A stretch of DNA of 32,000 nt from Candidatus Lokiarchaeum ossiferum (GCA_025839675.1 CP104013.1:5760001-5792000); one strand, 5' to 3'; positions 10,272 to 32,000 are shown, counted from the stretch's first letter. The notes: generated by a model from the letters alone, not told the origin. Made by a program: numbers and translations.

Positions 10272-10319
10272 TAAATATTGATCCTAAATTATTTTTATCC
10301 ATGCTGATCTTCTAGTATT

Positions 10320-12419: not shown

Positions 12420-12727
12420 AACTGAGTCAAATCACCCTCTATTTTTTTTTGTTTTTAATTTTCTCTCAAAAATTTAGATTAATCCGATAATAATCGAAGT
12501 CCAAAATCATTTAGAGTAAAAAGACAAGTCAACAATTTTCCGTCCTTTTGCGACCCATACCAAACACTAACAAAATTCTTTCAGAATTATAAAAAGTGAC
12601 TCCTTTTTGGAGAAAAATGTGGAATGGACAAAACCTGAAATAGATCCAAACCACGAAAATTGTATTTAGCCAATTAAGCATCATAAAGCAAAACTTTAAT
12701 GGCCACACCGCCACATAAAAGTCAAAG

Positions 12728-13885: not shown

Positions 13886-14048
13886 GAATATCCCAACCAT
13901 ATAGATCTGAAAAAGGTACTTCACCAGTTTCCGAGATACTTTTTATGAGATAAGATTTAGGATCTTTACATCCCTTGAAAATTTCCTAAAATAAATGTTA
14001 TAAATAATCTAATGTGAAACTATAATTACAGAATTATTTATTAATTCA

Positions 14049-14447: not shown

Positions 14448-14989
14448 TTCAATTTTTAGATCATGATTGGATAATTCCAAATTCTAAATGTAGTTGGGAA
14501 GAAGTAGCTTTACTGTGGTAAAATCTACCAATGGGTTGTTTATTTTTTTTACTTTAATCTCCAATATCACCAAAATTTTTGAAGATTTTATCAATTGGTA
14601 AAAAAATTTTCTGGGAAGAAAACTTTGAAAATTTCCCAAAAGAAGTGTAATGGACAATGCCCAAAAGTGTAATGCACCGACCCCCTCCACAAAAGTACCA
14701 ATAAATAACATCTCGTGTGATATCAATACAATTATGTCATCTCCAAGTAAAGAGAAAAAACTAGTCTATTCCCAGAATTGTCAGTGTTTGTCTGTATCAC
14801 ATACGGATGTGGTAGGCGGATCCCTCCTTTCCCACTATCTTTCTTAATTATTTGGATATTTTCACCAAAATTAATTTGCAATAACCATCTCTACAAAAGG
14901 AAGACAGGCGTAAAACCAAAAAACACAAAAATGAATAGTCCAGATTGTGTAATTCCTAGAGGAAAGACCGTTCAGCTCCGCAAACTCAT

Positions 14990-15245: not shown

Positions 15246-17942
15246 ATGTTACCTCTTCTCGAGAAATTCTCCTTCAAAAGTTTTCTTCTTTGCTGCTTGA
15301 TGCTGATCCTGATTAACCCGTACGAATCTTTCTTGACGACCAAGGATTCACTCGACACCACTTCCGAACAACTCCGTTCTATTAACCCTATTGTAAGTAA
15401 TCCCTATCCCCCATCCAGTGCCGCCTTGCCTATCTATTTTGATCCGTCCCTCTTTGGGGAAATAGATGTGCATATGAAAGGTCCTACTATCATGCGAGTG
15501 ACGGAGTCGTTTCTCTATATCGCCGCCGAATATTATATTTTAGTGTACGATATCGAAGATTTACATAATCCCAAGAAACTCGGATTTTATGCCCTTACTC
15601 CCCAAGACATCATTATTGATTTCGTGGTGGGGGAAGATTATCTTTATGCTGTCTCTAGCAGCAATAAATTTTCCATATTTGGAGAAAAAAGTGGAACCAA
15701 TACCTATCCAATCAAGGAATTTTTTCTGGAAAGTTCTCCCCGTTCAATGGTGCTGACAGAAGATTTTGTCTACGTGAATATGCCTTTCTATGGAATTGCA
15801 AAATATAACCAATATGATGGTCTTGGAATTTTCCAATGGGGTATGTATCCCCTTACACATTGCGATGTTTTTGCAATTACCGATGAGCTCCTGTTTACGA
15901 TCCAAAACAGCCACGATCTTGGAGTAACTAATATGAGTGCCCCAAATGATCAAAATCTGATGGTGAATAGTTCATTTCCTTGGGAAATAACATCCCTTAC
16001 GGTTGCTATGGATCGTTTATTAATCGGAACAAACTATCAAATTCGGGAGTATTCCCTCCTCCCAGAAGAATTTTTACAAAATCGAGCTACTTTGGATAAT
16101 ATTCCTCAAAATGGGATCGTGGTTACGGAAAAATATATTCTGGGAGTTTCAACAGATTATCAACTGTTTGGATATTATTATCGAAATTCATATTGGAATA
16201 AGCTATATTTCCAGGCATTTGAACACCTTCAGATATCCGCTGTCGCAGCAAGTAATAATCTCGCATGTGTGTATGATTGGGAGAAGGGAATTTTCCTTAT
16301 CGATCTTGGAAAAGATACCGATGCGGATAAGTTAACGAATCTGCAAGAAACTCAATCTTTTGGTACCAATCCTCTGGATCCAGATTCCGAAGCTGATGGG
16401 TTGACCGATCACGAGGAATGTATTCTCTATTTCACCGACCCTTGGAACAATGATACAGATGATGATACTCTCTCTGACTCGGATGAAGTCAAGCAGTATC
16501 ATTCCAACCCATTGTTAAAGGATTCCGATTCTGATCACATAAACGACCCTGTGGAAATTCTAATCATAGGATCAAATCCCAATTTGAAAGACAGTGATGG
16601 AGATGCGCTATCGGATGATTTGGAATATTATACTCTCCATACCAATGTCACAGATCCTGATTCGGATGAGGATCAAATGTGGGATGGGTGGGAAATCCAA
16701 TATAACTATAATCCGCTAGATTCGTCAGATGCGGAATTGGATGACGATAATGACAATTTAAGCACGGTAATGGAATTTTTCGCAGGAACCCACCCGTTAC
16801 TTAATGATTCCGATGGAGATAAACTTAGCGATGGCGAGGAAATTCTTCGTTATTTGACCAATCCTTGTCTCTTTGATTCGGATGCTGATGATCTCAGTGA
16901 TTGGGATGAAATTAAAATCTATCAAACCAATCCTTGTAAACTAGACACCGATGGGGATAAATTAAGCGATTACTTTGAAATCTATACCTCAAAAAGTTCT
17001 CCGCTTCAAATGGATACTGACCATGATAAGCTGTCCGATTACGATGAATTATATACTCATGGCACCTCACTGACCTCGAATGATACGGATCAAGATGGAC
17101 TCCTCGATTTTGATGAAATTTATATTTACTACTCGGATCCTACCTTGATAGATTCCGATGGGGATGGATTGAATGATTCGGAGGAAGTGCAATTAGGCAC
17201 CAGCCTTCAAAATCCCGATTCCGACGGGGATGGATGGCGAGATTCACGGGATCGTTTCCCGTTGGATTGGACTCGTCCTTGGATTCCGTTTATAGGAGCA
17301 CTTATTGGATTGGGAATACTATGTGGAGTCGGGGTAATGATAGTAAGAAAAAGACAACTTGCCCAGATACAGCGGAAAGAAGATCTCCAGATCAGAGACG
17401 CTCAGAAACAAGCGGAAATGATGAAGGAACTAAAGTTACAAAACCAACATGCTTTTGAAGAAGACCATTATCGAAGCCCTCTTGCGGAAATATTTGTATC
17501 CGCTTCGAATCATCCATCATCTGAACTTGGGGACCGTCTTCTTAAACTTAAAACCCAAGTTCGAACCGACTTTGCGGCAAATTTAATTACTGACGTAGGC
17601 TTCGAACAAATCATCGCAGAGATCTCAAAAATTGACCATCTCTTAGGCTTGTGGCTCTGTAAGGAGATGAATTTGATCCCTCAAAAGGACACCCCACCCT
17701 TAGAAATTGAGCCATATTTCTTAGAAATGTCTCCTGTCGTTCAGGAAATCCAAGCTCAATTCAAAACTTTTGATCAACTCTCCAAATCTCAACGCCTCCA
17801 CATTCTACTCACGGGCAGTGTAAGAAAAATTCAGTATAATTTGAAAAAAATCCGCCAAAGTGCTAAGCAATTTTCGCCTGAAGAAATTGCCCGTTGTCTA
17901 TCCTTGAACAAAAAGCAAATTCGTCGCTTTCTACAAATCTGA
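15246..17942 (+). CDS. single-pass surface protein: signal/anchor, LVIVD-like beta-propeller repeats, ~12 thrombospondin-type-3-like Ca-binding repeats, TM, ~200-aa cytoplasmic tail with HTH-like end
   Basis: N-terminal hydrophobic FLLCCLMLILI. LVIVD-type strings (YILVYDIEDLHNPKKLG, GIFLIDLGKD). Repeated D-x-D-x-D-x-L-x-D-x-x-E units (DSDGDKLSDGEE, DTDGDKLSDYFE, DSDGDGLNDSEE and others) across ~16330-17250. TM segment PWIPFIGALIGLGILCGVGVMIV followed by RKRQ. Tail ends FSPEEIARCLSLNKKQIRRFLQI. Confidence 0.85.
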   Translation: MLPLLEKFSFKSFLLCCLMLILINPYESFLTTKDSLDTTSEQLRSINPIVSNPYPPSSAALPIYFDPSLFGEIDVHMKGPTIMRVTESFLYIAAEYYILVYDIEDLHNPKKLGFYALTPQDIIIDFVVGEDYLYAVSSSNKFSIFGEKSGTNTYPIKEFFLESSPRSMVLTEDFVYVNMPFYGIAKYNQYDGLGIFQWGMYPLTHCDVFAITDELLFTIQNSHDLGVTNMSAPNDQNLMVNSSFPWEITSLTVAMDRLLIGTNYQIREYSLLPEEFLQNRATLDNIPQNGIVVTEKYILGVSTDYQLFGYYYRNSYWNKLYFQAFEHLQISAVAASNNLACVYDWEKGIFLIDLGKDTDADKLTNLQETQSFGTNPLDPDSEADGLTDHEECILYFTDPWNNDTDDDTLSDSDEVKQYHSNPLLKDSDSDHINDPVEILIIGSNPNLKDSDGDALSDDLEYYTLHTNVTDPDSDEDQMWDGWEIQYNYNPLDSSDAELDDDNDNLSTVMEFFAGTHPLLNDSDGDKLSDGEEILRYLTNPCLFDSDADDLSDWDEIKIYQTNPCKLDTDGDKLSDYFEIYTSKSSPLQMDTDHDKLSDYDELYTHGTSLTSNDTDQDGLLDFDEIYIYYSDPTLIDSDGDGLNDSEEVQLGTSLQNPDSDGDGWRDSRDRFPLDWTRPWIPFIGALIGLGILCGVGVMIVRKRQLAQIQRKEDLQIRDAQKQAEMMKELKLQNQHAFEEDHYRSPLAEIFVSASNHPSSELGDRLLKLKTQVRTDFAANLITDVGFEQIIAEISKIDHLLGLWLCKEMNLIPQKDTPPLEIEPYFLEMSPVVQEIQAQFKTFDQLSKSQRLHILLTGSVRKIQYNLKKIRQSAKQFSPEEIARCLSLNKKQIRRFLQI

Positions 17943-18090: not shown

Positions 18091-21000
18091 ATGACAGAAT
18101 TCTTGGCTGGTCTTCCCCTTCTCACTCCACCCTTAAAAGATATCTTATTAAATTTAGTAAGTGATGGTATTTATGATGCACTTTCCAAACATTACCCGCA
18201 ATGTGAACCGAAAGACCATAATTTTAATGATCAATTAAATCGCATAATCAAATTGTGCTTTGAAAAAGCGGAGGAAGAATATATGCCAGAATTTAAAAAA
18301 TTCGATAAGACAACGCAAGCATTGATTAAATCCTTCTTCCATAATACAAATGTCATTACATCTCTCATAAATCGGCTGTATTTTTTCCGATATAATCAAC
18401 AAGGTCAAGTAGAAATTCCTTCCGACGTGAAAACCATTTTTGTTCTCCATTTTCAGAAAGTTACCCTTTTAGAGGATAAAAAAGGGGAAGAAATTGGCTT
18501 AAGCATTTATGCCAGCCTAATTAATTTAATCCAAAAAGTCTTGGATGAGATCTACCAATCGAGATTCTTAGGAGATGCGGGAACAATGACGGATCATCGA
18601 ACATTGCTACTGATTGAAGAAATGCGAACTCAATCTCACATCATTCAAAGCAATTTTCAAAAAATTCTTACTGACCGAAAAACAAATATTGAAGCGATTC
18701 TCAAATTTGAAATTGAACTCCGAGATACAATGGCAAACGCAATGAATGATATCTGTATCCATGACATCGATGAAAAAAAAAGATGTGAAATTAAGGACAT
18801 TTTTGTTTCGCCTAAATTTAAAAGTTTTAATCCAGAAAAAGAATTAGAGAGGGAAGAGATATTCAAAGAATCTTTTACTAACAATAACCTTAAATCATCT
18901 ATATTAAAGATGTCTGTAAATATGTCTAATAGATTTAGATCTCTCGATTTGGACATTAATGGTCTGTTAAAGGATTCTTATTATTCCGTAATTTTAGGGG
19001 ATCCTGGTAGCGGAAAATCAACTTTGACAAAGGTCATTACCTATAAAGTTAACAAAAATTATGAAAGCAAATTGATTTTCAATAGACATCTAACTGTTCT
19101 TCCTATCATATTACGCGATTATTCACCAAAAATGGATGAATTGTCTATTTTAAATTATATCGAGAACAAAGCACAGGTAGATTATAGCTTAACTATTCCA
19201 GAAAATGCATTAAATTATCTGGCCCAACAAGGGAGAATTGCAATTATTCTCGACGGATTAGATGAATTAGATTATTCCAAACATCGCAACATAATTATTA
19301 CACGCATTGAAGCATTTATTCAAAAATATCCCTATGTTCCTGTGATTGGGACATCTAGAATCATTGGGTATCAAAATGCGCCTCTAAAAAAGTCTAAATT
19401 TGCTCATTATACAATCGAACCTTTTGATAATAATCAAATTAAAGAGTATATCACTAAATCCTTCGCATTATTAACGAATTCATCAAACTGGAAACAAAAC
19501 ACACCTATTGATGAAATTATTGAGGATTTCATGATACAAAGTCAAACTGTTTCTGATATTCGAAGTAATCCTTTATTACTCGCTTTAATGAGTAAACTAT
19601 TTCTTAATTCAAGATCAATACCTCAATCTCGTCCCGAAATATATGAATCTTGTACTAAAATGTTGCTCAAACAGTGGTATGTTATTAGAAATATAGAAAC
19701 AGAATATACACTAGATGAAATCAATGATTTACTTTCCTTAATTGCATACAATATTTATCAGCATGATGATTACAAACAAGGTATCAAAAAAACGGATATA
19801 ATTAATATATTACAAGAATATTTGCTCGAAATTAAATTTAAATATCCTCCAACGGCAAGAAATTACGCTAATAATTTTATAGAATCTTGTACAGGTAGAT
19901 TATGGGTTCTAACAGATGTAGGGTTATCGGAGTCAAATGAAAAAATTTACAATTTTACGCATAAAACATTCATGGAATATTTTGTTTCCGTCTACATAAA
20001 TGCCACAAAGGAAGGAGGAAGGGAGATTTACAAATTTCTTAAACCTAATATTCTCAATATTGTGGAAAATGAAATATCCCAGCTTACTATTCAAATATTG
20101 GGACGGAATTCACCAACTGGATTTAATTCCTTTTTTGATAGCTTAGTTTCATCGGTGGAAAGAACTAAAGACAATAAGAAGAAAATCACTATGTTAGATT
20201 TTATTCTAACATTCTTACCTATCAAATTTCCAAAATTGACAATCCTTTCCAAAATTTTTAAAGCAACTTTTAAATTAGTGGGTTTAGGCTCTGTTAATTC
20301 TGACATTTTAACTAATGCATTGCATTATCGTCAAAATAAATCTTTACACCTGATCTTTTTACAAAATTTATTTGAGGAACTAGGACCAAGTGGTTTGCTC
20401 TCAATAAACTCTTTTAGGATATATAATATAATTGACCGATTGGTATCATATAGATTTAAAGAACATGAAAATGATGAAATATATCAAATTAATTGTAAGA
20501 TTTTCAGAAAAATACAATTAGAAATATTGAAATTAGATTGTGATGTTGTAGAAAATAGACTCGAAATTATTACGTCTCTCTTAGATAACTCTTACATTTT
20601 ATTTAGGGAAGAGAAAAAATTTGATGATTATCTAGATTATCTAAGAATACCTTCATTTGAATACTACTATGTGCAAAAAGAAAAAATAAGTTTCGCTCTT
20701 TTTCTTAACATCCACCATAAAGCTCAAAATTTCATTTACAGGGGGGTAAAATTTCCATCATATATAGAAGAATTTATCTCACTTTTGACTAAATATCCGA
20801 AAATTTTTTCATCAGAACTATATAGCTTAGGTACAGTTGATCTTTTTTTGCGAGAAAAAATTACAATCTATCTCTCAAAATTACCATCAGTAAGTTTTGG
20901 ATTATTTTTGCTTTTATTTTTCATCTATTTTGATCCTTTGAATAAAACTCACAAAGAGACTTTTATAAGATTTGATAGAATCCAATATAAAAAAAGTGAA

Positions 21001-21162
21001 ATTTTCAATACATTTGATCGTACTATCGAAATATATAAAATGAAAATCTCCACAACAAATCTGCAAGTTCCTAAGTCGTCAAATTTATCTAATGATCAAA
21101 AGGATATGATTCTATCATTGTTCTCAGTCGAGAAGAAAACTGAGAGTGCGAGATATTTATAA
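18091..21162 (+). CDS. NACHT-family STAND NTPase with uncharacterised ~290-aa N-terminal domain and ~450-aa C-terminal helical region
   Basis: Walker A VILGDPGSGKSTLTK (~18990-19030). Walker B IAIILDGLDEL (~19237-19269). Downstream NACHT-typical SNPLLLALMSKLF. 1023 codons. Very AT-rich (hand counts 22-25% GC on two 60-nt lines). Confidence 0.85.
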   Translation: MTEFLAGLPLLTPPLKDILLNLVSDGIYDALSKHYPQCEPKDHNFNDQLNRIIKLCFEKAEEEYMPEFKKFDKTTQALIKSFFHNTNVITSLINRLYFFRYNQQGQVEIPSDVKTIFVLHFQKVTLLEDKKGEEIGLSIYASLINLIQKVLDEIYQSRFLGDAGTMTDHRTLLLIEEMRTQSHIIQSNFQKILTDRKTNIEAILKFEIELRDTMANAMNDICIHDIDEKKRCEIKDIFVSPKFKSFNPEKELEREEIFKESFTNNNLKSSILKMSVNMSNRFRSLDLDINGLLKDSYYSVILGDPGSGKSTLTKVITYKVNKNYESKLIFNRHLTVLPIILRDYSPKMDELSILNYIENKAQVDYSLTIPENALNYLAQQGRIAIILDGLDELDYSKHRNIIITRIEAFIQKYPYVPVIGTSRIIGYQNAPLKKSKFAHYTIEPFDNNQIKEYITKSFALLTNSSNWKQNTPIDEIIEDFMIQSQTVSDIRSNPLLLALMSKLFLNSRSIPQSRPEIYESCTKMLLKQWYVIRNIETEYTLDEINDLLSLIAYNIYQHDDYKQGIKKTDIINILQEYLLEIKFKYPPTARNYANNFIESCTGRLWVLTDVGLSESNEKIYNFTHKTFMEYFVSVYINATKEGGREIYKFLKPNILNIVENEISQLTIQILGRNSPTGFNSFFDSLVSSVERTKDNKKKITMLDFILTFLPIKFPKLTILSKIFKATFKLVGLGSVNSDILTNALHYRQNKSLHLIFLQNLFEELGPSGLLSINSFRIYNIIDRLVSYRFKEHENDEIYQINCKIFRKIQLEILKLDCDVVENRLEIITSLLDNSYILFREEKKFDDYLDYLRIPSFEYYYVQKEKISFALFLNIHHKAQNFIYRGVKFPSYIEEFISLLTKYPKIFSSELYSLGTVDLFLREKITIYLSKLPSVSFGLFLLLFFIYFDPLNKTHKETFIRFDRIQYKKSEIFNTFDRTIEIYKMKISTTNLQVPKSSNLSNDQKDMILSLFSVEKKTESARYL

Positions 21163-21244: not shown

Positions 21245-21856
21245 CTACGAATGTAACAAATGCAGGGTGCATCCATTCACTAGATCCTTAGGACATTCTT
21301 CTGGATGATCAGCTATTGTAATATCTAATCGAGATAAGATTTTGGAGACCAATCGTGCCACCACCCGTTCCAGTTCTTGGGAGGTCACGGGAGGATCCAC
21401 GATCCGATCCATTAATAATTCTTCCCCGAATAAGGTCCTTCCATAATCGTCTAAATCTGCCCGTTCTTGAAAATCGATTTGATACCAACGTTCTTTGGCG
21501 GGAGATCGGTTCTCTGAAGGGGATCCAAGTTCGAGGAAGTCGAGCTGTAAAAGTTTGACAAACATCTGGTGTAACAAATCCAATCGATGTTCCCCTTCCG
21601 AAGTGAGTCTCCCCCATAAGACCTCCCGAAGACAATGATCCGCAGGGCGGGAGGTAAGCTGAACATAGCCTTGTTGGGCCAATTTCCGGATACGATTCAA
21701 CACGGTTTTGCGATCAATTCGGGTTTTTAGACTAATCGCTAAAAAGATGGCAGATTGGTTAATCACCCGAGTGAGGTCCATAATTCGGCAAGGAGAATTG
21801 ACAGCCAGCAAATGGAAGAGGTAGAAATCTAAATAATCATCCAAGGTTTTTTTCAC
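21245..21856 (-). CDS. MarR-like winged-helix transcriptional regulator
   Basis: RIMDLTRVINQS...RKTVLNRIRKLAQQGYVQLTSRPADHCLREVLWGRLTSEGEHRL fits the MarR-type wHTH pattern (recognition helix, G-hydrophobic-V, wing, LT..G). Much higher GC than the adjacent NACHT gene (hand count 52% for 21361-21420). Confidence 0.7.
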   Translation of the reverse strand: MKKTLDDYLDFYLFHLLAVNSPCRIMDLTRVINQSAIFLAISLKTRIDRKTVLNRIRKLAQQGYVQLTSRPADHCLREVLWGRLTSEGEHRLDLLHQMFVKLLQLDFLELGSPSENRSPAKERWYQIDFQERADLDDYGRTLFGEELLMDRIVDPPVTSQELERVVARLVSKILSRLDITIADHPEECPKDLVNGCTLHLLHS

Positions 21857-21934: not shown

Positions 21935-21997
21935 GGGAAAAACTTGCCAAATGATGGGGAGAAGTTGCCAAATATAGGGAAAAAGTTGCCAAATGGG
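21935..21997. repeat. three tandem ~21-bp direct repeats, GGG-R-A-R-AA-S-TTGCCAAAT
   Basis: TTGCCAAAT at 21944-21952, 21965-21973 and 21985-21993 (spacing 21 and 20 bp), each preceded by GGGAAAAAC / GGGGAGAAG / GGGAAAAAG. Lies 80-140 bp upstream of the wHTH gene start (21856, minus strand). Confidence 0.7.
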
Positions 21998-22673
21998 GCA
22001 AAAGAAGGCTTTGATCCCAAAGAGGAAAAAAAGAGACGAATATGGAAATTGGAAGCGATTCTGTAACGGTTTCATCGGTTTTGATCAAAAGATGGGAAGA
22101 TCAGTTACTGGGAAGAGACGAATGACAAGCTGAAACGGTACTTTCGAGAGTGAATTCTACTGATTGTCGAATAAAATAGAAATATTGTCTGGTGTATCAA
22201 GTATTTCTTCACAGAGGTCTCCGAAAGTACTCGATGCTGACCGTTTTTTTGTGGGAAAAAAAATCAAGCTTACAATAAAAAAATGGAGATCTACCACTCG
22301 TTTTTGTGGGATGAAAAATAAAAAAACACTCGAATGAACATATTTGGGGGAATACAAATTAAGTAATTTTCCCCTTAGACGGAATAACGCAGAATTTTGT
22401 CGAGATTTTCCCCTATCTATGTCAGAACAGAATAACCATTTTCAACGTGATGGACCCGTTTTCATGAAATTATTGCCCACATTTTGCAATAAATATGATC
22501 TCTTATACGATTTGATCGCATCCAGCAAAATTCTTAAATAGATAAAAATCTAACAATAGATCATAAAAATTTAGTCTCCGATAAAAACGAAAGAATGATT
22601 CTTGAAGGTGAATTTTCGATACTAGACCTAATGGACATTCTCCAAAACCCTTTCACTCCCGCTGAAGAAAATT

Positions 22674-25600
22674 TTGGACCCGATCCATTTTTGGTTTTAT
22701 AAAGAATTGGAGGAATTAGATCTTAAGAATCAGGGTCGTTTCTCCTCTGACAAAAAATCTTACGGGGAAAACAACCTTCGGTCGATGATTAAAAACCTCT
22801 GCAAAGTGAACGATATGGTATCTAAAACAACTTGCTCGAAGGGAAATGTCCCCCCATTCTCCCTTAAGGGTCCAGAACCGACCCCCCTCGCCATCAATAC
22901 CCAAGAACATGACCTTACGAAATTTCGATCTTCCCTTCACCTCTTAGGATGTTCCAAGGATCCAGCCTCCTTCTCCTTGGAAGAACTTGTTCAAGCCTAT
23001 AAACTTCCATTAGAACATCCCTATTACAGTAAAAAAACTCGCTTTGTCAACCGGGCTTATCTGCGATCGATCACGCCTCCTCTGTCGGAAAACCGCATTG
23101 ATCGCCTCTTAAAAGTCCCCGTCAAGACTAAACGGGTAGCGAGTCACATTGAATCTGAACCCTATCAGCTCCATTATGACGGTATTGTGGACGAACCTTT
23201 TGATCCGGTTCCGTTTCCAACCCTTTCTTCACCTCCGAAAGATCCACCCAAAAAATCACCCAAACTCCCGCCCGACTTGAAGACCAACCTCCCCTCCAGG
23301 AAAAATGGGCCCTGCTCCTTTTTCTTAACTCTTTTTGCCGTTGTTCCATTAATCACCATTATCTTTCTGTTTCCCCACTTACAAGGGGCATTTCATCATT
23401 CGGTCGGCTACATTGCCTCCCTTGTCCTTGGAACTGCCTATTATGGCACACTCGGGCTCATTGTGTGGAAACCCTACTTTCTGAAACATCAAACCTTTCG
23501 ACACAACCTCTGGAGGCGTATTTGTTCTCCCTTTTTACTTCTCCGAAGGAAGATTCTTAGCACAATACAGACCATAGGGAATATTTTCTCTCCAGCAATG
23601 CGCTATATCGGAGGAAAAATCATCCAAATAAGGACAAATCTGATCCAATGGAGGAAAGTCCAGAGTCACAAGGGGAAAATTTATCTGCAGCAAAAAAAAA
23701 ATTGGATAATCTCCTTACTAAAATCAACTCGAAGCTATGAAAAGGGACTGGTCATCCGAAGGAGATGCCTTCAGAGCAAGTCCCGTATTAACGATCACAT
23801 ATCATCTCTTACATTCCACACCAAAGAAGCCATTACTACGAAATATGTCCATTTCAAATCCCTTTGGCTTCGATTAGAAGCCAAGTCTCAGCTGTGTGAG
23901 GTTTTAGGGGCACAGCTTTGGTTGATCTCCCACATCCTTCGCCTTCCCTATTATCTTGGGAAAGAAGGGGTTTTCCTCGTTCAAGCCATCGGATCAGAAT
24001 TTCACGAGATCCAGTGTAGCATACAGACTTCCTGGAGACGAAAAAAACGACATCATAAAGTCAAACACACTTCTCAGCGCTCTGATGAGAGAACCGCTCC
24101 GAAGTGGATATTATTTTTCCAAAGTCTTTGTGGCCAAACTCTCTACAAGGGATTACAAGTCAGCATGGCAATACTGGCTTTAGGGAGTATGGTCTTGGTT
24201 CTTCTTCAGTTCAAACTGTCGACACCCTTGATCCCCTTCTTGGCTCTTCTCCTAGGGGGAGGCCTCCTTCCAGGATTCTTATTGGGGGACCCAAAGAAAC
24301 ATGAGACCTCGCCCGTAGATGTAAATATCTTTTCTTCAAGCTTAGATGAGGATACAAGTTACCAACCGAAAGTAGTAGAACGAAAGACAAAATGGGATTA
24401 TTACTACGGATTTTTGAAAGCCTTAGAAATCCGCAGGGAAAATATCGCCAGAAATAAACGCAAACAACATCAGACGCCAAAGGCTTCTCCTTCCAAACTA
24501 GCCATTCCTCTAATTCCTAAAAAAAATCCTATATCTTCGTCGTCAGCTCTTTCTTCACCGTTTTCCCGACGAATCATGCCCTTCGTGAGCGTCTTATTTT
24601 TGATTGCTTGTGTGCCTTCCATTACACTCTCGGACCAACAAACAACAACTGTAAACATTTCTCCTATGGCGAATCTCACCATGGAATTGGGCTCTCCCGA
24701 AATGCTTTCATTTGCTGTGGAAACGCATCAGCTCCAATCAGTTTCCTATGCTGTTCTGGTCAATAATGAAATCTTTCAAGAAGGGACCCTTGGACCCTCT
24801 CAAGGGTTGGACTTGCCTCTGAACCATTTACCCGAAGGGAAACATTACATTTCATTACAAATCACTACTCCTCGCCACGAATCAGTGGTAGAAGATTGTT
24901 GGGTAACCGTCGTGAATACTCTCCCCTTTATTGATCCCAGCCCAACACCTGAGCAATTTGAAGATGACAATATGGATGCTACCTTACGCTGGAGGATCAC
25001 AGACCCATCAGTACTCACCCCTGTGTATGACCTGTGCATCTACCACGATAATAAAGTGGTGACCAGCGAAAACGGCAACTTATCCCAATCCCTCACCAAC
25101 CCAGATCAATTCACCTCCCACTATAATATTGCTTCCTTGGGTGTTGGAACCTATCAATACGCCTTTTGTGTGAAGGATGGTTTGGGAGCCCCTATCTGGG
25201 ATAATGGAACCTTTACCATTGTCATGGATCTGGCCCCCGAAGTGACCACCCCTCAATCAATTCTGTACGTTGAACAAGGGGATGTCGTAGAATTAGATTT
25301 CACGATTTCCGATCCCCGACGCACAGGATTTTATGATGTGCGACTGGGTGATCAAGAACTCATTGCAAATACTGCCTATGAAAATTTTGCCCATGTCTCT
25401 CAGGAGATCAATACTTCCTCCATGTCCTGTGATGAGTATCAATATACATTGCAATGCATAGCCACACTTTCCAAACTCAAAACCTATCAGACGATCATCG
25501 TATATGTCATGGACAATTTAAATCCGGAGGTAACCCATACTAATGAATCCATTGCTACAACCGATGGAACTTTTCACACCCTTCGTTTCGAAGTCCACGA

Positions 25601-28600
25601 TTCGCATTTGCTTTCCAACTTCACCTCAAATTTGACGATTAATGGGGAGGGGTATTCCATAAAGGATCTCCAAAATCGCTTTCCGAGTACGAGTGAGATG
25701 AATTCGGAGGCCACCGTTTATCGATTAAATCTGACTCTCCCCGCTCGGTTATTCCACGAAGGTCAAAATGATATTATGTTCCAAGTCACCGATGGTGAAG
25801 GCGGTTCAACGATCCATGATTTTCACCTCTTCCAAAATTCAACCCAAACATTATTGGTAGAAAACTTAGCCACACCAAATTTCTTTAAACAAGCCTTGGA
25901 AAGTACTCCTTTAGAAAATCAACTCTTCCTTCTATTGAGTGGATGTCTTTTCATCTTTGCACTCATGGCGATGTTTTGGTTTCACCATCGCAAAACCGAT
26001 CCAAAAATGACCTCGGTTCAGCGAATTCGGTTTCGATTCATCACCTTATTCTTGGTGGGCCTTAACTTCGGTTTCCCACAATTTATCCAAGCTCAGGCTG
26101 CCCCTAGTCCCCTCAACCCGATTTCGGACTTATCGTTATCCATGATTTACCCAACTATTGAAAATCAAACCAGTTACACCGATCCCTTAACCTTTGGAAT
26201 TTTATTGTATGATTGGTTGACTCTCGAATGGACCTGTGACTATGATGCCTATCAAGTCGTGCAAATTAAAAATCTCACCGATGGGACGGTGATTTATGAA
26301 CATCGCCAATTTCAGGTGGCAGGGGCTCGGTCCCATCAGATAGCCATATCGCCCACCCTCGGATTTTTACCCGATCAAAATTATAGCGTTCAGGTCATCA
26401 CGGAAGATGTGGGATCCCTCTATTCCACTTATGGCTATTCCGAAACTTTTATGCTCAATGTCTTCAAAGCCCACGCTGTTTTTACCTTTGATCAAACCGT
26501 TGATAATCAAGATAAAGGTATTTTTGCGGTGACTCGCCGTCTCAATGAAACCGCCTATTTTCGCTTTGATCTCCATTATAAGACACAGTTGGTGGATGCG
26601 TATAATCCTCGACGATATGTCAGTGCGGAACCGATTATCGTCGAATCCCCGTCAATGACAGGCTATGATCCCGTGACGATTGGTACAACAGGACAATTTG
26701 GGGATCATGAGTTTGTGACCATGCGTACCTCTCTGAATTTTACGGAAGGTGCTCGGTGGACGTTTGAAGGAAATGATTATTATGAGGAAACTCACGCCAG
26801 CGATTACTTGGATGCGCAATCCCTCATTTCTGCCCACGATTATACTCAGCCTGAAGATTTGGCAAATTATACGTCTTCAGGGGACACCTATTCAAATTCC
26901 TCCTCCATCGATACGGTAACGAATTTATATCGCTATTTTTCATGGGAAGCGGGAGAGACGGGCTATAACGGGTTTATTCGGAGCGAGACTAATTCCACGT
27001 ATTATGCCTATGGAGTTAAGGATTCCTCCGATTGTCTCTTTTTTGGATCGACCTCAATGAATCCCCTAGAAACAATGCTTTACAGCCCAAGCATTTATTA
27101 TTATGCTGATGGGGCGAAATCTGCATCCACCAGTATCACTTTTGGCACGAAACAAGATTATAATTCCTTTGCGGATGTCTTTGAAAATTCTAATATTTTT
27201 GATGTGGATATAATCCTTTTTGATGAAGATTTCACAATTTTAGAACAACGATCCTTGTTCGATGGAAATATTGTGGCCATGCAAACAAAGACAATAGACT
27301 TCAACCTTGCCCACTTCACGGTTCCCCGTGCATTTCGGCTTGCCCTTCAAATTCGCATAAATCCCCTCTGGCATAATGCGACTTGGGATGATGCTGATGA
27401 ATTATACTTCTTATTAAGATCCATTTCCTTCGATATTGATTATAATTATGCCCAATGGGGATCATCCAGTTCCCTCGACGATTTTCAATCCATGACTTTG
27501 TTAGAAGAAACTCAACCGATGCAATTTCGGAGGGGAGGATCCCAAGCCATGTTTTATGTGCACTCGGGAGTCGATTCTCAGTTCGCCAATGGCCCGATCA
27601 AAAGTGAAGGAGAATTTATTTTACCTTCCCCTGTGGATTTTACCGATCCATCTTTGGCCGCATCAAACCTAACTTTAACCACAAACTTCGAGTTGGCCCA
27701 TTACGTCGTTGAAGCGAATAATGGTGCGTATAGCTATTCGATCCGAGTAATCCCACAGCTCATAGATCAGACGTACTTGTCATCTATTCCCTTAGCTTCG
27801 GCCAGCAATGTCCAAGATCTTACCACAGTAGTTCAACTTACCACGGATCTCAACGCCTTTAAAGGCCAGCCTATCGATCACTTTCTCCTTCAAGTCTGGT
27901 TCGAAGTACCTGGAGATCCTTTGTCGTCTGATAAATCGGATGAATATCGCAGTTTATTTACTGAAATTACATTGGACGTAAATAATTCCATTATAACCGA
28001 TCTCGTGGAAGGATCCACGACAGGTAACTCGACTATGTATTCGTGGATGGTAGATATTATGCCTGAAATTGGAGATCAACTCTTAGATGTAACCACCTAT
28101 ACGCCCGATAGTATGGGCTATTTCCGCAATTGGATGACTACTGATGTTCCTTTTGCATGCGGCACTGATTGGAATGCTTACCCTACGATTAACGGAAGTC
28201 ATATCGATTGGACCCACGATTATGCCCCCGGTGATTATGTGATTCCCCAAGAAGTTCCGATTGCAGGGTCGAATAATGAATCTCAATGGGTAGAATATAC
28301 ATCAGCAAAAGAATTATTTGAGATTGACAAATATTATGGGGCAGATGATTATCTTTGTTCATACGTTATGATGTATGTCTATTTTCCTCAATATGAACCG
28401 AATGTATATTTGAAAGTGGGCTCGCAAGACGGATCTCGGATAGTTTGGGATGATGGAGAGGTCTGTTACAATCACGTCCAGCGATTTCTCGGGAAAAATT
28501 CCGATGATGAGCAGGATATCATCAATCTTGAAAATGGGGTTACCGCGGGATGGCATCGCCTATTCATTCAAACGGAAGGCTATGATTCCAACTGGTTGCT

Positions 28601-31600
28601 TCGATTACGTTTTTCGACAATCGACGGGGAAGGTGATAGTTTTTATTCGGCGATTCCTGGATTGCGCTATTCCCACACTCCACCTCTCCAAGAGACTCGC
28701 TTTTCATCTAAAACATTGAAAGTTATCCCTACTAAAAAACAATCGTCGGAATCCTCCCGAAATGCTCTCGTGATGGAAATACCCGAACAACCCGTCTCCG
28801 AAGGGGCTACGGGTAAGACCTCTATTATAACCCCCATCACCAACGGCGAAGGCCTTGGGGATACATTATTCAACGGAACTCTCACGATTACTCTAAAACC
28901 TTCCGTCTCGTCTGCAACCGTCGATTCCGCGACTCTGAATGTAACCATGTTCTTTGATCTGTATATTAAAGATGGGATGAATTGGATTTCTGAATATACC
29001 ACCCAAATCTATGCATGTGAATTATCCTATACCACGATGTTAAGTCTCTCCCTTGAAGAAATTACCCTCGATTTGGATACCTTGTTTGCCGATTATACTG
29101 GGGATGGAGACCCGTCCTTATCCTATTATCGTATGTACTATCGTACAGAAATTCAAGCCACCAGCACCGGTAAATGTCCTGAAGCCCAAGTGGAAATTCT
29201 CAACACCCAGTTAACCCTTATTGATCTTCCTCCAGCGGGGGCTTTTGTCAACCTTCAAACTGGTGATATGTTATTTGGCACCGAAATGATTACCATTCAA
29301 GCGCAAAGTCATGATGTGATTTCAACCCGTTTATTAGGCTCTCAAGATGGACTCAGTTGGAAATCCATTGCTGAGACTACGGTCCATAACAACTGGCTCT
29401 TTACCTTGCAATTCAATACGGCCACCAATCCCGCCTTCCCCCCTAATGATGATGAATTTTATCTCATGGTGCAATTACGAGATCATTTTTCGACGATCAA
29501 CACCTCCTTAGTGATAGTATGTATTGATAATGAGCGTCCTGTATTAGAAGTGCCCGATTGGGAGCCGATCGATAACATCCTCTGTAATCCCACGAACATT
29601 TCTATCATATCCGAAGCTCCCGATATCATGCAAGTCCGGTTTGAAGCCATTAGTTCGGCTACAGGATCATGGACCAATCCCATTTTCCTTTCCAATTATA
29701 CTTTTACAAATGTGGAAGGGAATCTCACCGAATATGGCTTTCTCCTTGATCCCTTTATGTTAGATGTGGGGACTTTCGATTTTCGCGCCGTTTGTTTGGA
29801 TAAAACGTGGGATGAAGCCACCGCCAGCATCATTGAACTGGGAAATCTCACCGTCTCTCGGTTTAATCCGGAATTTACATTGCCAACACCTACGAATAAT
29901 ACAGGGCTTGTTTCGGGATTAATTCCATTCAATTTTTCGAGCGGTGCTATCAATCTCGATAATATCACTTTATCCACCCGTCTTGGGGAGTATGCGAGTC
30001 TCTCTCAATCTCCCGAAGATAAGTATTATGTGGAACTGGATTCAGCTATGCTGTTTGGTGAATATGAACAGCAAATGGAGACCTTTACCTTCACCTTTAC
30101 TGTAAATGGCTATAGCCAAGCCTGGACCTATCGGTTGTATGTGGATAATGACAATCCCGAGATCACTTTTGGATTCGATCCTTCCGTTTCCGTGAGTAGC
30201 GATTCGATTGAGACTTCTTTGGATGAAATACCCGTAGTCTCGCTTAGTCAACCCATAAATTTAATTCAAGATCAAACCCAGATCTCATTGGATATTTCCC
30301 ACAATAATACCGCGGATTTAGCTTATCTCGAATATTATGGGCTTTTTTACCATCGGGAAAGTGATGCGGATGGATGGTTGGATTATAACGCCATTTCGTA
30401 TGACCGTGGGGTTGATGGCTTTAATTGGATCCAAGATATTTCAAATGGTTTGCTCTTTGCCATTGATAAAATGATTGCCAATGGTATAACTTGGAGCACC
30501 TTACCTTCGTTATCTGGAAGTGATTATCACTACCTTCAATATGTGACCGAGTGGAATGTGAATGGCCTTTCAAACACATATTTCAATGAAGAAATGACCT
30601 CCGCTCAAACAGACTTTGCCTCAAACTTGAGCCTGTTACTTTCCTATTTAACTACCGATCAACTGAGTAGTGCCTATGATCTAATGTTAAGGACTATCAA
30701 ACCGCATTTAACGGAGCTCGCAACCAATGAATACGATGTACCGTGGGAAACTCCCGAAAAAGTCGTGTTTGGAACCTATTTTTCGGATGATTTAGCAACA
30801 TATACTCCAACAATTAATCTGGAAGGTTTTCCCGATGGGTATTTTCAGCTCGGAACAAGCATTACTGATCATGTCGGATTACGAGATGAAAGTGTATCGC
30901 CTCTGTATTTCTTGGAAAACAATCTCCCCACGTTCCAAATTGTTTCTCCTGCGGATAACGAACAACTGGTAATTTTACCCGATCAATGTAATTATGTGAA
31001 TTTTTCGATGTATGTGCCTGACCGTGATATTCGCTCGATTGCCTTAACTAATATGGTCATGTTTGATGATCTGGTGACGGAAGATTTAACTTTTGATATG
31101 GGGCAAGATTTGCCCAATCATCGAGTCGACTTCGGATTCAATCTCTCCGAAGCCATATCCAATACAATTGTGAATACCTATGTACTCAACCCACAATGTG
31201 CATGGACCATCACTACTGAAGATTTTGCAGGACGGATCTATACGCAAACCCGCACGTTTACCTGTGTGCAAATTCCAGATCACATTGGTCCTCAATTTTT
31301 GAATTATACGGTTCCAGATGCGTCCGCCCTCTGGACCGAAGGATGTGATATTGTTTTAAATATTACTGATTTTGGCAATCCTGTATTTGATGTAAATATG
31401 ACTTATGTTGGGGATGATGTGGCTTCTGGAATCCGATACTTGGAAGTGTGGCTTTCAGAAATCCCTCAAAATCTAGATCCTAGGCAAATTTACTTCCCGA
31501 TTATGGACTTTGAAACCACGGGAGATAGTTCCATGCTGGATAATTTTCTTGGTTTTATCATTACCTCCGAATCTGATGGTACATATATCTTCAATCCCGC

Positions 31601-32000
31601 GAAAATGAACAAGTTTTGGGCGAAATATGACGGGGATGGGCAATATACTTTTATTGTACGGGCTTTTGATCAGAATTTTAATGCAGAACTTATCACCGTT
31701 GATTTAAATATTGTGCAACCTCGCTTAAACCTCCCAGCTAATACTCCGGTGCCAACCATCGGAAGTGATGAATGGTTAAACCTTACTTTATCCAATCTTG
31801 GAGATCAAGTGGTGAGTGTTGAAATGCTGCTTTATACAGACATTACGGCCAGTTTCTTAGCTCCATGGTCATTAAGCGACTATGAGGAAGCAACCGAGAA
31901 TTTAATTGATCATCCGACGGATCCCGATGCCCTTCCAGCCTGGAATTCTTTGCGAATCCATACAACCATTCCCTATCTTGATCTGCCTGATTTGAACAAG
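22674..32000 (+). CDS. giant multi-pass membrane / adhesin-like surface protein, 3'-truncated by the window (>3,070-3,120 codons visible)
   Basis: Frame mod3=0 has stops at 22623 and 22629, then none up to nt 32000. I translated most of it by hand, and the track lists no frame-0 + ORF after 22632, as expected for an ORF without a stop. Start candidates: TTG 22674, TTG 22707, ATG 22785. Seven hydrophobic segments: ~23316-23372, 23403-23468, 24159-24212, 24225-24287, 24576-24632, 25923-25982, 26040-26099. Repeated ~100-aa Ig/cadherin-like modules with boundary motifs (VVNTLPFIDP, VMDLAPEVTT, VMDNLNPEVT, CIDNERPVLEV, VDNDNPEITF). Many N-x-S/T sequons. Confidence 0.85.
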   Translation, partial: MDPIHFWFYKELEELDLKNQGRFSSDKKSYGENNLRSMIKNLCKVNDMVSKTTCSKGNVPPFSLKGPEPTPLAINTQEHDLTKFRSSLHLLGCSKDPASFSLEELVQAYKLPLEHPYYSKKTRFVNRAYLRSITPPLSENRIDRLLKVPVKTKRVASHIESEPYQLHYDGIVDEPFDPVPFPTLSSPPKDPPKKSPKLPPDLKTNLPSRKNGPCSFFLTLFAVVPLITIIFLFPHLQGAFHHSVGYIASLVLGTAYYGTLGLIVWKPYFLKHQTFRHNLWRRICSPFLLLRRKILSTIQTIGNIFSPAMRYIGGKIIQIRTNLIQWRKVQSHKGKIYLQQKKNWIISLLKSTRSYEKGLVIRRRCLQSKSRINDHISSLTFHTKEAITTKYVHFKSLWLRLEAKSQLCEVLGAQLWLISHILRLPYYLGKEGVFLVQAIGSEFHEIQCSIQTSWRRKKRHHKVKHTSQRSDERTAPKWILFFQSLCGQTLYKGLQVSMAILALGSMVLVLLQFKLSTPLIPFLALLLGGGLLPGFLLGDPKKHETSPVDVNIFSSSLDEDTSYQPKVVERKTKWDYYYGFLKALEIRRENIARNKRKQHQTPKASPSKLAIPLIPKKNPISSSSALSSPFSRRIMPFVSVLFLIACVPSITLSDQQTTTVNISPMANLTMELGSPEMLSFAVETHQLQSVSYAVLVNNEIFQEGTLGPSQGLDLPLNHLPEGKHYISLQITTPRHESVVEDCWVTVVNTLPFIDPSPTPEQFEDDNMDATLRWRITDPSVLTPVYDLCIYHDNKVVTSENGNLSQSLTNPDQFTSHYNIASLGVGTYQYAFCVKDGLGAPIWDNGTFTIVMDLAPEVTTPQSILYVEQGDVVELDFTISDPRRTGFYDVRLGDQELIANTAYENFAHVSQEINTSSMSCDEYQYTLQCIATLSKLKTYQTIIVYVMDNLNPEVTHTNESIATTDGTFHTLRFEVHDSHLLSNFTSNLTINGEGYSIKDLQNRFPSTSEMNSEATVYRLNLTLPARLFHEGQNDIMFQVTDGEGGSTIHDFHLFQNSTQTLLVENLATPNFFKQALESTPLENQLFLLLSGCLFIFALMAMFWFHHRKTDPKMTSVQRIRFRFITLFLVGLNFGFPQFIQAQAAPSPLNPISDLSLSMIYPTIENQTSYTDPLTFGILLYDWLTLEWTCDYDAYQVVQIKNLTDGTVIYEHRQFQVAGARSHQIAISPTLGFLPDQNYSVQVITEDVGSLYSTYGYSETFMLNVFKAHAVFTFDQTVDNQDKGIFAVTRRLNETAYFRFDLHYKTQLVDAYNPRRYVSAEPIIVESPSMTGYDPVTIGTTGQFGDHEFVTMRTSLNFTEGARWTFEGNDYYEETHASDYLDAQSLISAHDYTQPEDLANYTSSGDTYSNSSSIDTVTNLYRYFSWEAGETGYNGFIRSETNSTYYAYGVKDSSDCLFFGSTSMNPLETMLYSPSIYYYADGAKSASTSITFGTKQDYNSFADVFENSNIFDVDIILFDEDFTILEQRSLFDGNIVAMQTKTIDFNLAHFTVPRAFRLALQIRINPLWHNATWDDADELYFLLRSISFDIDYNYAQWGSSSSLDDFQSMTLLEETQPMQFRRGGSQAMFYVHSGVDSQFANGPIKSEGEFILPSPVDFTDPSLAASNLTLTTNFELAHYVVEANNGAYSYSIRVIPQLIDQTYLSSIPLASASNVQDLTTVVQLTTDLNAFKGQPIDHFLLQVWFEVPGDPLSSDKSDEYRSLFTEITLDVNNSIITDLVEGSTTGNSTMYSWMVDIMPEIGDQLLDVTTYTPDSMGYFRNWMTTDVPFACGTDWNAYPTINGSHIDWTHDYAPGDYVIPQEVPIAGSNNESQWVEYTSAKELFEIDKYYGADDYLCSYVMMYVYFPQYEPNVYLKVGSQDGSRIVWDDGEVCYNHVQRFLGKNSDDEQDIINLENGVTAGWHRLFIQTEGYDSNWLLRLRFSTIDGEGDSFYSAIPGLRYSHTPPLQETRFSSKTLKVIPTKKQSSESSRNALVMEIPEQPVSEGATGKTSIITPITNGEGLGDTLFNGTLTITLKPSVSSATVDSATLNVTMFFDLYIKDGMNWISEYTTQIYACELSYTTMLSLSLEEITLDLDTLFADYTGDGDPSLSYYRMYYRTEIQATSTGKCPEAQVEILNTQLTLIDLPPAGAFVNLQTGDMLFGTEMITIQAQSHDVISTRLLGSQDGLSWKSIAETTVHNNWLFTLQFNTATNPAFPPNDDEFYLMVQLRDHFSTINTSLVIVCIDNERPVLEVPDWEPIDNILCNPTNISIISEAPDIMQVRFEAISSATGSWTNPIFLSNYTFTNVEGNLTEYGFLLDPFMLDVGTFDFRAVCLDKTWDEATASIIELGNLTVSRFNPEFTLPTPTNNTGLVSGLIPFNFSSGAINLDNITLSTRLGEYASLSQSPEDKYYVELDSAMLFGEYEQQMETFTFTFTVNGYSQAWTYRLYVDNDNPEITFGFDPSVSVSSDSIETSLDEIPVVSLSQPINLIQDQTQISLDISHNNTADLAYLEYYGLFYHRESDADGWLDYNAISYDRGVDGFNWIQDISNGLLFAIDKMIANGITWSTLPSLSGSDYHYLQYVTEWNVNGLSNTYFNEEMTSAQTDFASNLSLLLSYLTTDQLSSAYDLMLRTIKPHLTELATNEYDVPWETPEKVVFGTYFSDDLATYTPTINLEGFPDGYFQLGTSITDHVGLRDESVSPLYFLENNLPTFQIVSPADNEQLVILPDQCNYVNFSMYVPDRDIRSIALTNMVMFDDLVTEDLTFDMGQDLPNHRVDFGFNLSEAISNTIVNTYVLNPQCAWTITTEDFAGRIYTQTRTFTCVQIPDHIGPQFLNYTVPDASALWTEGCDIVLNITDFGNPVFDVNMTYVGDDVASGIRYLEVWLSEIPQNLDPRQIYFPIMDFETTGDSSMLDNFLGFIITSESDGTYIFNPAKMNKFWAKYDGDGQYTFIVRAFDQNFNAELITVDLNIVQPRLNLPANTPVPTIGSDEWLNLTLSNLGDQVVSVEMLLYTDITASFLAPWSLSDYEEATENLIDHPTDPDALPAWNSLRIHTTIPYLDLPDLNK
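28287..28619 (+). other. PA14/GLEYA-like carbohydrate-binding-type domain inside the giant ORF (tentative)
   Basis: WVEYTSAKELFEIDKYYGADDYLCSYVMMYVYFPQYEPNVYLKVGSQDGSRIVWDDGEVCYNH...LENGVTAGWHRLFIQTEGYDSNWLLRLRFS resembles the PA14 pattern (f.a.f..p.tG.Y.f...sDDg.rlwiDg....... L.aG..y.i.ieY.e..g.a.l.l.w). Confidence 0.4.

Follow-up and report, generated by a model that had tools for sequence, protein, structure and literature searches.

A giant gene of Candidatus Lokiarchaeum ossiferum that probably encodes a membrane-anchored surface protein with two separate ectodomains

This study concerns a stretch of 32,000 nucleotides (nt) from Candidatus Lokiarchaeum ossiferum (GCA_025839675.1, CP104013.1:5760001-5792000), referred to below as the window, and a giant gene that begins within it. 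An open reading frame (ORF) on the + strand, extending from position 22632 to the last base at 32000, is the start of one real gene of about 9,700 codons. Its product is probably a giant, glycosylated, membrane-anchored cell-surface protein belonging to a small, modular family. L. ossiferum has a single membrane and no S-layer, and its complex surface proteins have not yet been identified (PMC9834061). To judge from the architecture described here, the role of the protein is most likely contact or adhesion at the surface of this S-layer-less cell. Coordinates are positions in the window on the + strand unless stated otherwise, and residues are numbered throughout from the ATG at 22785.

Translation of frame 0 on the + strand gives 3,123 codons between 22632 and 32000 without a single stop. 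A TAA directly precedes 22632, and from the first ATG, at 22785, 3,072 codons lie inside the window. The remaining five frames contain 2 to 22 stops per 600 nt, and their longest open runs are 91 to 118 codons. Shuffles that keep the region's own base composition have 0.054 stops per codon, which puts log10 P(no stop) at -75 over the entire frame and at -15.8 over its first 655 codons alone; a chance ORF is thereby ruled out. An earlier, sequence-only reading of the window had reported this ORF of more than 9.3 kb with the same codon counts, and had correctly attributed its omission from the ORF track to the want of a terminus in the window, since the track lists no ORF that runs off the source.

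Two Logan assemblies, SRR22273278_20 (70.9 kb) and SRR22273277_21 (133 kb), both located by way of a divergent neighbouring gene of 203 amino acids, are base-identical to window positions 11245-31856. Gene calls on these contigs predict a product of 9,702 residues from the ATG at 22785 or of 9,728 residues from a TTG at 22707, longer than the sequence-only reading had supposed. The window therefore carries only the first third of the gene. Attempts to extend the ORF beyond the window found nothing: an exact 50-mer search of the genome collection, a protein-guided search of the genome, viral and metagenome collections with the last 300 residues, and an alignment-guided metagenome scan. Exact look-ups identify the neighbouring genes as NEF87_004907 to NEF87_004915 of Ca. 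Lokiarchaeum ossiferum B-35 (B35 below), and from the numbering of the locus tags the giant gene is presumably NEF87_004916.

A Kyte-Doolittle scan and the Hessa insertion scale identify seven hydrophobic, potentially transmembrane (TM) segments, TM1 to TM7, at residues 177-197, 210-230, 455-475, 482-502, 597-616, 1046-1066 and 1086-1104. These are the seven best 19-mers, and the seven best 15-mers, of all 3,072 residues, and exactly the seven that had been proposed from the sequence. Six of the seven have insertion scores of 2 kcal/mol or less, with no false positive elsewhere. TM7 ranks seventh at 6.1 kcal/mol, the next-best segment scores 7.8, and nothing in the window beyond TM7 ranks as more hydrophobic.

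The predicted parts follow one another in a regular order. The N-terminal region from the probable start (residues 1-176, 22785..23312) is predicted to be cytoplasmic; it has a net charge of +9, a proline-rich stretch at residues 138-166, no N-x-S/T sequons, and no homologue was found for it. TM1 and TM2 (23313..23474) would form a hairpin with an outside turn of 12 residues. They are followed by a predicted cytoplasmic loop of 224 residues (231-454, 23475..24146), an orphan sequence with 41 Lys/Arg against 10 Asp/Glu (net +31) and no sequons. A second hairpin, TM3 and TM4 (24147..24290), has a turn of 6 residues and leads into another predicted cytoplasmic loop, of 94 residues (503-596, 24291..24572, net +10). 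TM5 (24573..24632), with two arginines before it, aligns with the TM segment that precedes the homologous ectodomain in the relatives P0037, P0039, P0022 and P0023, and we propose that it would export the first ectodomain. TM6 (25920..25982) is the most hydrophobic segment and a long helix in the structural model described below; it is proposed to be a stop-transfer anchor. A cytoplasmic loop of 19 residues, HHRKTDPKMTSVQRIRFRF (25983..26039, net +5), separates it from TM7 (26040..26096), which is signal-peptide-like in its composition and aligns with the N-terminus of a further relative, P0055. Ectodomain 2 begins directly after TM7.

Charge and sequon content differ sharply between the two sides of the predicted membrane. 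The four cytoplasmic parts are all basic, and the two ectodomains have net charges of -39 and -182. Lysine and arginine make up 17.6% of the residues in the predicted cytoplasmic parts and 4.3% outside. No sequon occurs within the 525 residues of the predicted cytoplasmic parts, ectodomain 1 contains 10 (shuffle mean 5.2 +/- 2.1), and the part of ectodomain 2 in the window contains 32 (20.2 +/- 4.1 in shuffles). From the basic inside, the acidic outside and this distribution of sequons we infer an N-in topology, in agreement with the positive-inside argument made earlier. N-glycosylation of the ectodomains is probable. The sizes and charges previously given for the loops and ectodomains also hold (176, 224, 94, 429, 19 and 1,968 residues). 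The sequons had been called dense; they are indeed enriched outside, but only about 1.6- to 1.9-fold, and the word overstates this.

Ectodomain 1 (residues 617-1045, 429 residues, 24633..25919) is the only part of the window protein with many relatives. An exhaustive HMMER search with residues 1-1200 against 1.84 billion representatives yielded 48 matches, all of them within residues ~580-1192. Most of these relatives have a signal peptide, tandem modules of ~90 residues and, at the C-terminus, a TM anchor. Where a relative has a taxon name, it is Sigynarchaeota or Lokiarchaeota, and some relatives pass the Pfam models K319L-like_PKD or PKD_4. A module profile built from 298 module instances in the 48 relatives matches residues 625-710, 714-813 and 818-908 with E values of 1e-6 to 1e-13, and a fourth module, at 914-1014, marginally. 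An AlphaFold2 model of residues 590-1290, made with a 26-row alignment, has a mean predicted local distance difference test score (pLDDT) of 74.9. It contains four beta-sandwiches at pLDDT 85-95 and two long helices, at TM6 and TM7, at pLDDT ~76-81. Model and profile together support four tandem immunoglobulin (Ig)-like modules, with the beta-sandwiches at residues 625-710, 714-813, 818-908 and ~914-1017. The sequence-only reading had anticipated about four Ig/cadherin-like modules here, followed by TM6, a short loop, TM7 and a second huge ectodomain, and in the model TM6 and TM7 are indeed a helical hairpin.

No database searched puts a name to the modules. Foldseek searches against PDB and viral models returned only generic tandem beta-sandwich arrays (E ~1e-14, TM-scores ~0.2), and the module consensus of the family stays below threshold against several Pfam E-set and Ig families (22 bits each for TcfC and K319L-like_PKD). 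The window protein itself, searched whole and in tiles, has no Ig or PKD match above the Pfam cut-off, and nothing was recognised in it by Pfam, NCBIfam, PHROGs or PDB sequence searches. BLAST and a seeded hidden Markov model (HMM) detected no significant internal repeats, and only the external module profile detects the modules of ectodomain 1.

TM7 reads RIRFRF / ITLFLVGLNFGF / PQFIQAQA↓APSP, where the arrow marks a putative cleavage site. It thus has a basic n-region, a hydrophobic core of 12 residues (ITLFLVGLNFGF, within the 7-15 residues typical of signal peptides), a proline at -8 and small residues, both alanine, at -3 and -1. As read from its residues, TM7 is certainly built like a signal that initiates export. 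In the alignment it falls on the N-terminal signal peptide of P0055, whose last residues and putative cut are AMA↓C. Because P0055 starts its ectodomain 2 with a signal peptide of its own at this place, TM7 looks like a signal peptide that has been fused in. It is also the weakest of the seven hydrophobic segments, and the small-residue -3/-1 motif is not evident in its counterparts in P0037 or P0039.

Ectodomain 2 occupies the remainder of the window (residues 1105-3072, 1,968 residues, 26097..32000); it should continue for ~6,600 residues past the window, giving ~8,600 in total. It is homologous to P0055, at 31-39% identity, and to ORFs of the metagenome locus L005. Its first domain (residues 1113-1226, 26121..26462) is a beta-sandwich in the AlphaFold2 model, at pLDDT 75-90, and a homologous stretch is present in P0037, P0039 and P0055. 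The best-conserved block lies at residues 1977-2385 (28713..29939), with 38% identity to P0055 and 28% to L005. The alignments of homologues reveal a variable slot at residues ~1745-1976 (28017..28712), which is reduced to 8 residues in P0055 and replaced by ~360 unrelated residues in L005. P0055 carries its own insert, of ~240 residues, at another position. The blocks that flank the slot are the best conserved of ectodomain 2, and a variable slot in a conserved scaffold could be a ligand-binding cassette.

Part of this slot had been described as a PA14-like domain, which the searches do not substantiate. The tile of residues 1773-1992 matches no Pfam family even at E <= 10 and no PDB sequence, which rules out PA14 (PF07691) as a sequence-level claim, and the slot differs between homologues. 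A single-sequence AlphaFold2 model of residues 1105-2304 had a pLDDT of 29 and was discarded. The "PA14-like" stretch has no homologues to align. The earlier expectation of further Ig-like modules in ectodomain 2 is not borne out: a beta-sandwich is seen for its first domain only, and the module profile detects nothing significant in ectodomain 2. We propose that beta-rich domains follow one another along ectodomain 2 in a long, acidic chain.

The order of these parts recurs in relatives. P0037 is a complete gene of 1,019 codons that ends in a stop of its own; the ORF after it is unrelated. It encodes four TM segments and basic loops, then another TM segment, a 452-residue homologue of ectodomain 1, the motif TM-KKKRK-TM and, finally, ~180 residues homologous to the start of ectodomain 2. 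In BLAST it matches window-protein residues 558-1200 at 21% identity (E = 2e-12), and only chance-level matches join it to the N-terminal anchor region. P0039 (774 residues) has a basic N-terminus, three TM segments, a 433-residue homologue of ectodomain 1, a TM segment, a 32-residue basic loop, another TM segment and the start of ectodomain 2, that is, five TM segments compared to the seven of the window protein. The same order of parts in P0037 and P0039 shows that the layout is conserved and is not an assembly chimera. The sequence-only reading had asked whether orthologous loci would have separate genes and so expose a chimera here; instead, both proteins keep the junctions in frame at ~20% identity, and these junctions and the identical assemblies rule a chimera out.

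P0039 lies on L005, a Joint Genome Institute (JGI) metagenome contig, which contains two more ORFs, in other frames, that are collinear with residues 1263-1464, 1472-1709 and 1988-2385 of the window protein. At L005 5960-6060 a 47-nt tandem duplication, by which MKTIREIMGDADFIT is encoded twice, splits a long gene into two ORFs; either the duplication is an artefact of assembly or it has disrupted the gene recently. The collinear ORFs together with the duplication indicate that L005 holds the same long gene, interrupted by an assembly error or by decay.

Other relatives carry the parts as separate genes, which makes the family modular. P0022 and P0023 are stand-alone cassettes of a basic N-terminus, a TM segment, four modules and a TM segment, and on the contig of P0023 ectodomain-2-like sequence lies just downstream, in shifting frames. 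P0055 (MBD3349944.1, from a Lokiarchaeota metagenome-assembled genome) matches ectodomain 2 with E = 2e-67 and begins, with its own Met and signal peptide, exactly at the position of TM7; upstream of it are 358 nt of stop-filled DNA and then a divergent gene. In the small family it is the one relative that bears a taxon name. Both halves persist as separate genes in relatives. The giant gene appears to have arisen when a membrane cassette (basic N-terminus, TM segment, four Ig modules, TM segment) was joined to a giant secreted protein that had a signal peptide of its own. IMG/VR contains no relatives of the giant protein.

A word-indexed protein search was blind to the family although members are in its collection; P0055 shares 11 exact 5-mers with the query. 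We treat that null result as a blind spot, not as absence; only the exhaustive HMMER search found the family.

Taken together, these features suggest the following mode of assembly. The N-terminus would remain in the cytoplasm, and the TM1/TM2 and TM3/TM4 hairpins, with long and very basic cytoplasmic loops between them, would fix the protein in the membrane. TM5 would start export of the 429-residue loop of four Ig modules, and TM6 would halt transfer. After the 19-residue basic turn, the signal-peptide-like TM7 would restart export, and the remaining ~8,600 residues would be threaded to the outside as ectodomain 2. TM7 itself is probably retained as an anchor.

Several observations weigh against this interpretation. 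The sequence read is that of the first third, and two thirds of the protein, including the C-terminus, lie outside the window. The topology is based on hydropathy, charge and sequons, and the hydrophobicity of TM2 and TM7 is only moderate. Residues 1-580 have no match among the 1.84 billion representatives, and P0037 and P0039 resemble this N-terminal region in kind, with TM segments and basic loops, but not in sequence. The homologous loci L005 and L006 are broken by frameshifts, which may stem from faulty assembly or may indicate that genes of this kind are prone to decay. Pfam-type searches of the whole protein and of tiles identified no adhesive or lectin domain, and the earlier label "adhesin" comes from architecture. 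Finally, strain B36 shows similar surface densities (B36 preprint) although the gene is absent at its locus. A similar surface in a strain that lacks the gene at this locus means that the protein cannot be a common surface coat; a strain-specific contact or adhesion factor is more likely.

If TM7 were instead cleaved after AQA, for which we see a smaller but appreciable chance, the mature product may be a six-TM protein plus a separate chain. The gene would then encode a polyprotein-like precursor, made as one chain and cut by signal peptidase after TM7 (AQA↓APSP) and possibly also after TM5. Its products would be a small polytopic protein with ectodomain 1 and a separate chain of ~8,600 residues, held by a C-terminal anchor of its own, bound to ectodomain 1, or released. 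The signal-peptide proportions and low hydrophobicity of TM7, its alignment to the genuine signal peptide of P0055, and the arrangement of most ectodomain-1 relatives, which start with a signal peptide and are anchored by a TM segment at the C-terminus, all speak for such a precursor. The model, however, shows TM7 as a long helix paired with TM6, the -3/-1 motif is not evident in P0037 and P0039, and a second anchor would have to lie in the C-terminal part outside the window. We regard the precursor as possible but doubtful. Were the internal signal peptide cleaved, the gene would offer a rare prokaryotic example of surface proteins made in the manner of a polyprotein. A more elaborate version, which we consider quite improbable, is a transmembrane coupling device and not a passive fibre. 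In it a giant, strain-specific extracellular chain, made from one ORF by way of an internal, cleavable signal peptide, would remain docked on a polytopic membrane subunit whose long basic, proline-rich loops would link outside contacts to the cytoplasm or to the lokiactin cytoskeleton. Those contacts would be made with partner cells, or would join protrusions to the body of the same cell, and the device would be an integrin-like adhesion receptor in function, in an Asgard archaeon.

Two other explanations have very little probability. One is an artefactual or decaying fusion, in which two or three neighbouring genes (for a membrane protein, the ectodomain-1 cassette and a giant secreted protein) are seen as one ORF, through an assembly error or the recent loss of stop codons, and are not used as one protein. 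A methionine does stand at the start of the TM5 and TM7 segments (M598 and M1075), and the parts occur as separate genes elsewhere. Such a fusion is nevertheless largely excluded by the base-for-base agreement of the two assemblies, by the lack of any stop in ~9,700 codons, and by P0037 and P0039, which at ~20% identity keep the junction of TM6, loop, TM7 and ectodomain 2 in frame, as a chance read-through would not. The other, equally improbable, is a signalling receptor of the adhesion-7TM type, with a seven-helix bundle that relays binding by the ectodomain inward; the sequence-only reading had remarked on a conceptual resemblance of this kind. The number of segments and the length of the cytoplasmic loops are all that points in this direction. 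The succession of a hairpin, a 224-residue loop, a hairpin, a 94-residue loop, a single TM segment, a 429-residue loop and a final hairpin does not make for a compact bundle, and Pfam gives no 7TM or GAIN signal. We prefer the giant, membrane-anchored surface protein to all of these alternatives.

The gene appears to be an accessory one. The GC content at third codon positions (GC3) is 0.43 in the giant gene and 0.45 in the divergent gene upstream, compared to 0.21-0.26 in typical neighbours, and the codon composition of the giant gene looks foreign. In strain B36 (CP163304) the neighbourhood is 96% identical up to a gene for a TSP3-repeat protein, and the similarity between the strains ends sharply at window positions ~22165-22175. 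The segment 22166-32000 was not found within the next 8 kb of the B36 locus, where tblastn with the giant protein was also empty. In place of the giant gene, B36 (L008 14611-22697) has small ORFs, then a histidine kinase, a response regulator and a chemoreceptor. These B36 genes beyond the break have no B35 counterpart at 90% identity (cluster mates), which indicates a replacement-type variable region. From its foreign-looking codon composition and its absence from the syntenic locus of B36, we conclude that the giant gene is accessory and strain-variable.

Such a gene might be the cargo of a mobile or recently transferred element, on the pattern of the Heimdallarchaeum "aloposons" and their giant genes, with a function that serves the element or is dispensable. 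This would concern the origin of the gene only and is compatible with a giant surface protein. The GC3 values of the giant gene and of the divergent gene agree with it, as does the absence from B36 of the gene and its 620-nt upstream region, at a sharp break with unrelated genes beyond. Wu et al. (2022, PMC8813620) report many giant genes in Asgard archaea, unrelated to one another, as possible parts of mobile elements. The window, however, contains no integrase, no ParA-like ATPase, no tandem second giant gene and no adjacent tRNA, its only tRNA being 15 kb upstream. The visible break has no flanking repeats, the divergent gene of matching GC3 is present in both strains, and viral relatives are lacking in IMG/VR. 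On this evidence we consider a mobile origin unlikely.

The B35-specific region upstream of the ATG (22166..22784) contains a TATA-like sequence, TTTATAAA, at 22696-22703, found by eye within the open frame, 82 nt before the ATG at 22785. If this is the promoter, the TTG start at 22707 would be upstream of the transcript start. An Rfam scan of the long upstream region gave no matches, and a sigma-70 promoter and terminator scan is irrelevant for an archaeon. The divergent gene (21245..21856, - strand) encodes a winged-helix, MarR-like protein of 203 residues, a possible regulator. B36 keeps this gene and also ~300 nt upstream of it, at 88.7% nucleotide identity. Three direct repeats of GGGAAAAAGTTGCCAAATG with a spacing of exactly 21 bp lie at 21935-21995, 80-140 nt upstream of the MarR-like gene; they could be an operator array, within the stretch common to B36. 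A small ORF at 22043-22126 (beginning MEIGSDSVTVSSVLIK) shares its first 16 residues with a B36 gene of 60 codons (L008 14487-14669). The B36 copy starts with GTG (V), not M, and for a further ~11 residues the two agree only in patches; the B35 ORF stops at 22126, ~40 nt short of the strain breakpoint.

The two strains differ elsewhere in the window as well. A gene for a NACHT NTPase (18091-21162, 1,023 residues, within window segment 17968-21318) is absent at the syntenic position in B36; this is a second strain-specific indel, adjoining the giant gene. At 12650-14639 B35 has a NYN-domain gene and a 132-residue ORF, B36 has a different gene of 376 codons on the opposite strand (L008 8008-9138), and the flanks of this replacement are 96% identical between the strains. 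Two GC3-rich islands (0.38-0.40) are present in both: 9042-10745, with a TFIIB-like gene of 409 codons and a 141-residue ORF, and 15246-17942, with the TSP3-repeat surface protein, which has a TM segment and a cytoplasmic tail of ~190 residues. At 3060-5636 an HD-CE domain protein (Pfam E = 1e-34), with a weak PADLOC match to a DRT model, stands beside a 486-residue ORF that bears the GenBank name HtpG and has no Pfam match; the two may together form a module of a conflict system.

Both giant surface proteins of archaea and tandem arrays of Ig-like modules are already known. The layout found here is new: ordinary archaeal surface proteins do not show it, and no named precedent was found within the libraries and literature searched. 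Its anchor is basic and polytopic, its Ig loop runs between two TM segments, and a second giant ectodomain would be re-exported by a segment derived from a signal peptide. At least three proteins conserve this layout, which is seen in fused and in split states. The relatives record how it arose, by fusion of a membrane cassette and a giant protein that had a signal peptide in front. Lokiarchaeum ossiferum is among the very few cultured Asgard archaea, and thin, membrane-bridging densities on the Lokiarchaeum surface have not yet been assigned (PMC9834061; B36 preprint). A membrane-anchored protein of ~9,700 residues is a concrete candidate for one of the long surface structures; stretched out, some ninety domains of 100 residues would reach hundreds of nanometres. 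B36, without the gene at this locus, provides a natural presence/absence control against B35. Searches of Pfam, NCBIfam, PHROGs and PDB sequences do not see the ~3,000 residues in the window, and routine annotation and word-indexed searches miss proteins of this type.

Among known systems, adhesion G-protein-coupled receptors (GPCRs) also combine a large, adhesive-looking ectodomain with seven membrane segments in one chain. The likeness is superficial only, as TM segments here lie far apart and relatives differ in how many they have. The window protein has no match to the Pfam 7tm or to GAIN/GPS models, and where adhesion GPCRs carry GAIN/GPS it has the basic, cytoplasmic-type sequence before TM1. 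These points, together with the five TM segments of P0039, rule out an adhesion GPCR.

Wu et al. (2022, PMC8813620) described giant genes on the "aloposons" of Heimdallarchaeum, among them the pair Otus and Ephialtes, and noted many further, unrelated ones throughout the Asgard archaea. They share with the present gene an Asgard host, a length of thousands of residues, the lack of annotation and accessory or mobile signs, but no sequence relation was found. The hallmarks of aloposons, namely tandem giant genes, an upstream ParA-like gene and a tRNA target, are not seen in the window. The four conserved upstream genes of aloposons, including a MinD/ParA-like ATPase, are absent, and the genes upstream here are those for the MarR-like, NACHT NTPase and TSP3-repeat proteins. 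The giant gene thus fits the group of unrelated Asgard giant genes of Wu et al., not the aloposon pair. The giant multi-TM proteins of Omnitrophota are mostly extracellular, with poorly annotated domains, and are thought to mediate attachment (West-Roberts et al. 2023, preprint, 10.1101/2023.11.21.568195). Several TM segments and mostly extracellular domains are common to both, but the Omnitrophota proteins are bacterial and much larger and have SecA-DEAD and peptidase domains; no homology was found.

Very long chains of Ig-like or other beta-domains that project from the cell, with a variable binding region, are familiar from the RTX adhesins LapA and SiiE, from Ebh of Staphylococcus and from haloarchaeal halomucin. 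Those proteins have a single ectodomain and are anchored by an outer-membrane plug, by a single TM segment or not at all; no library searched gave any sequence similarity of the window protein to them. Viral and eukaryotic membrane polyproteins such as the bunyavirus glycoprotein precursor pass from a stop-transfer TM segment through a short basic turn to an internal signal peptide with an AXA site and then to the next ectodomain. TM6, turn and TM7 follow one another in the same order here, with no homology and with cleavage that is putative. The closest relationship is to the tandem PKD/Ig-like surface proteins of Asgard archaea, such as MEX2725780.1 (P0024) and MDO8114033.1 (P0021) of Sigynarchaeota, which have the ~90-residue Ig-like module in common with ectodomain 1 and, like the window protein, present acidic, sequon-bearing extracellular arrays. 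Most of those proteins, however, consist of an N-terminal signal peptide, the domains and one C-terminal TM segment, whereas in the window protein the modules are looped between two TM segments, behind a basic anchor of four TM segments and ahead of a second giant ectodomain.

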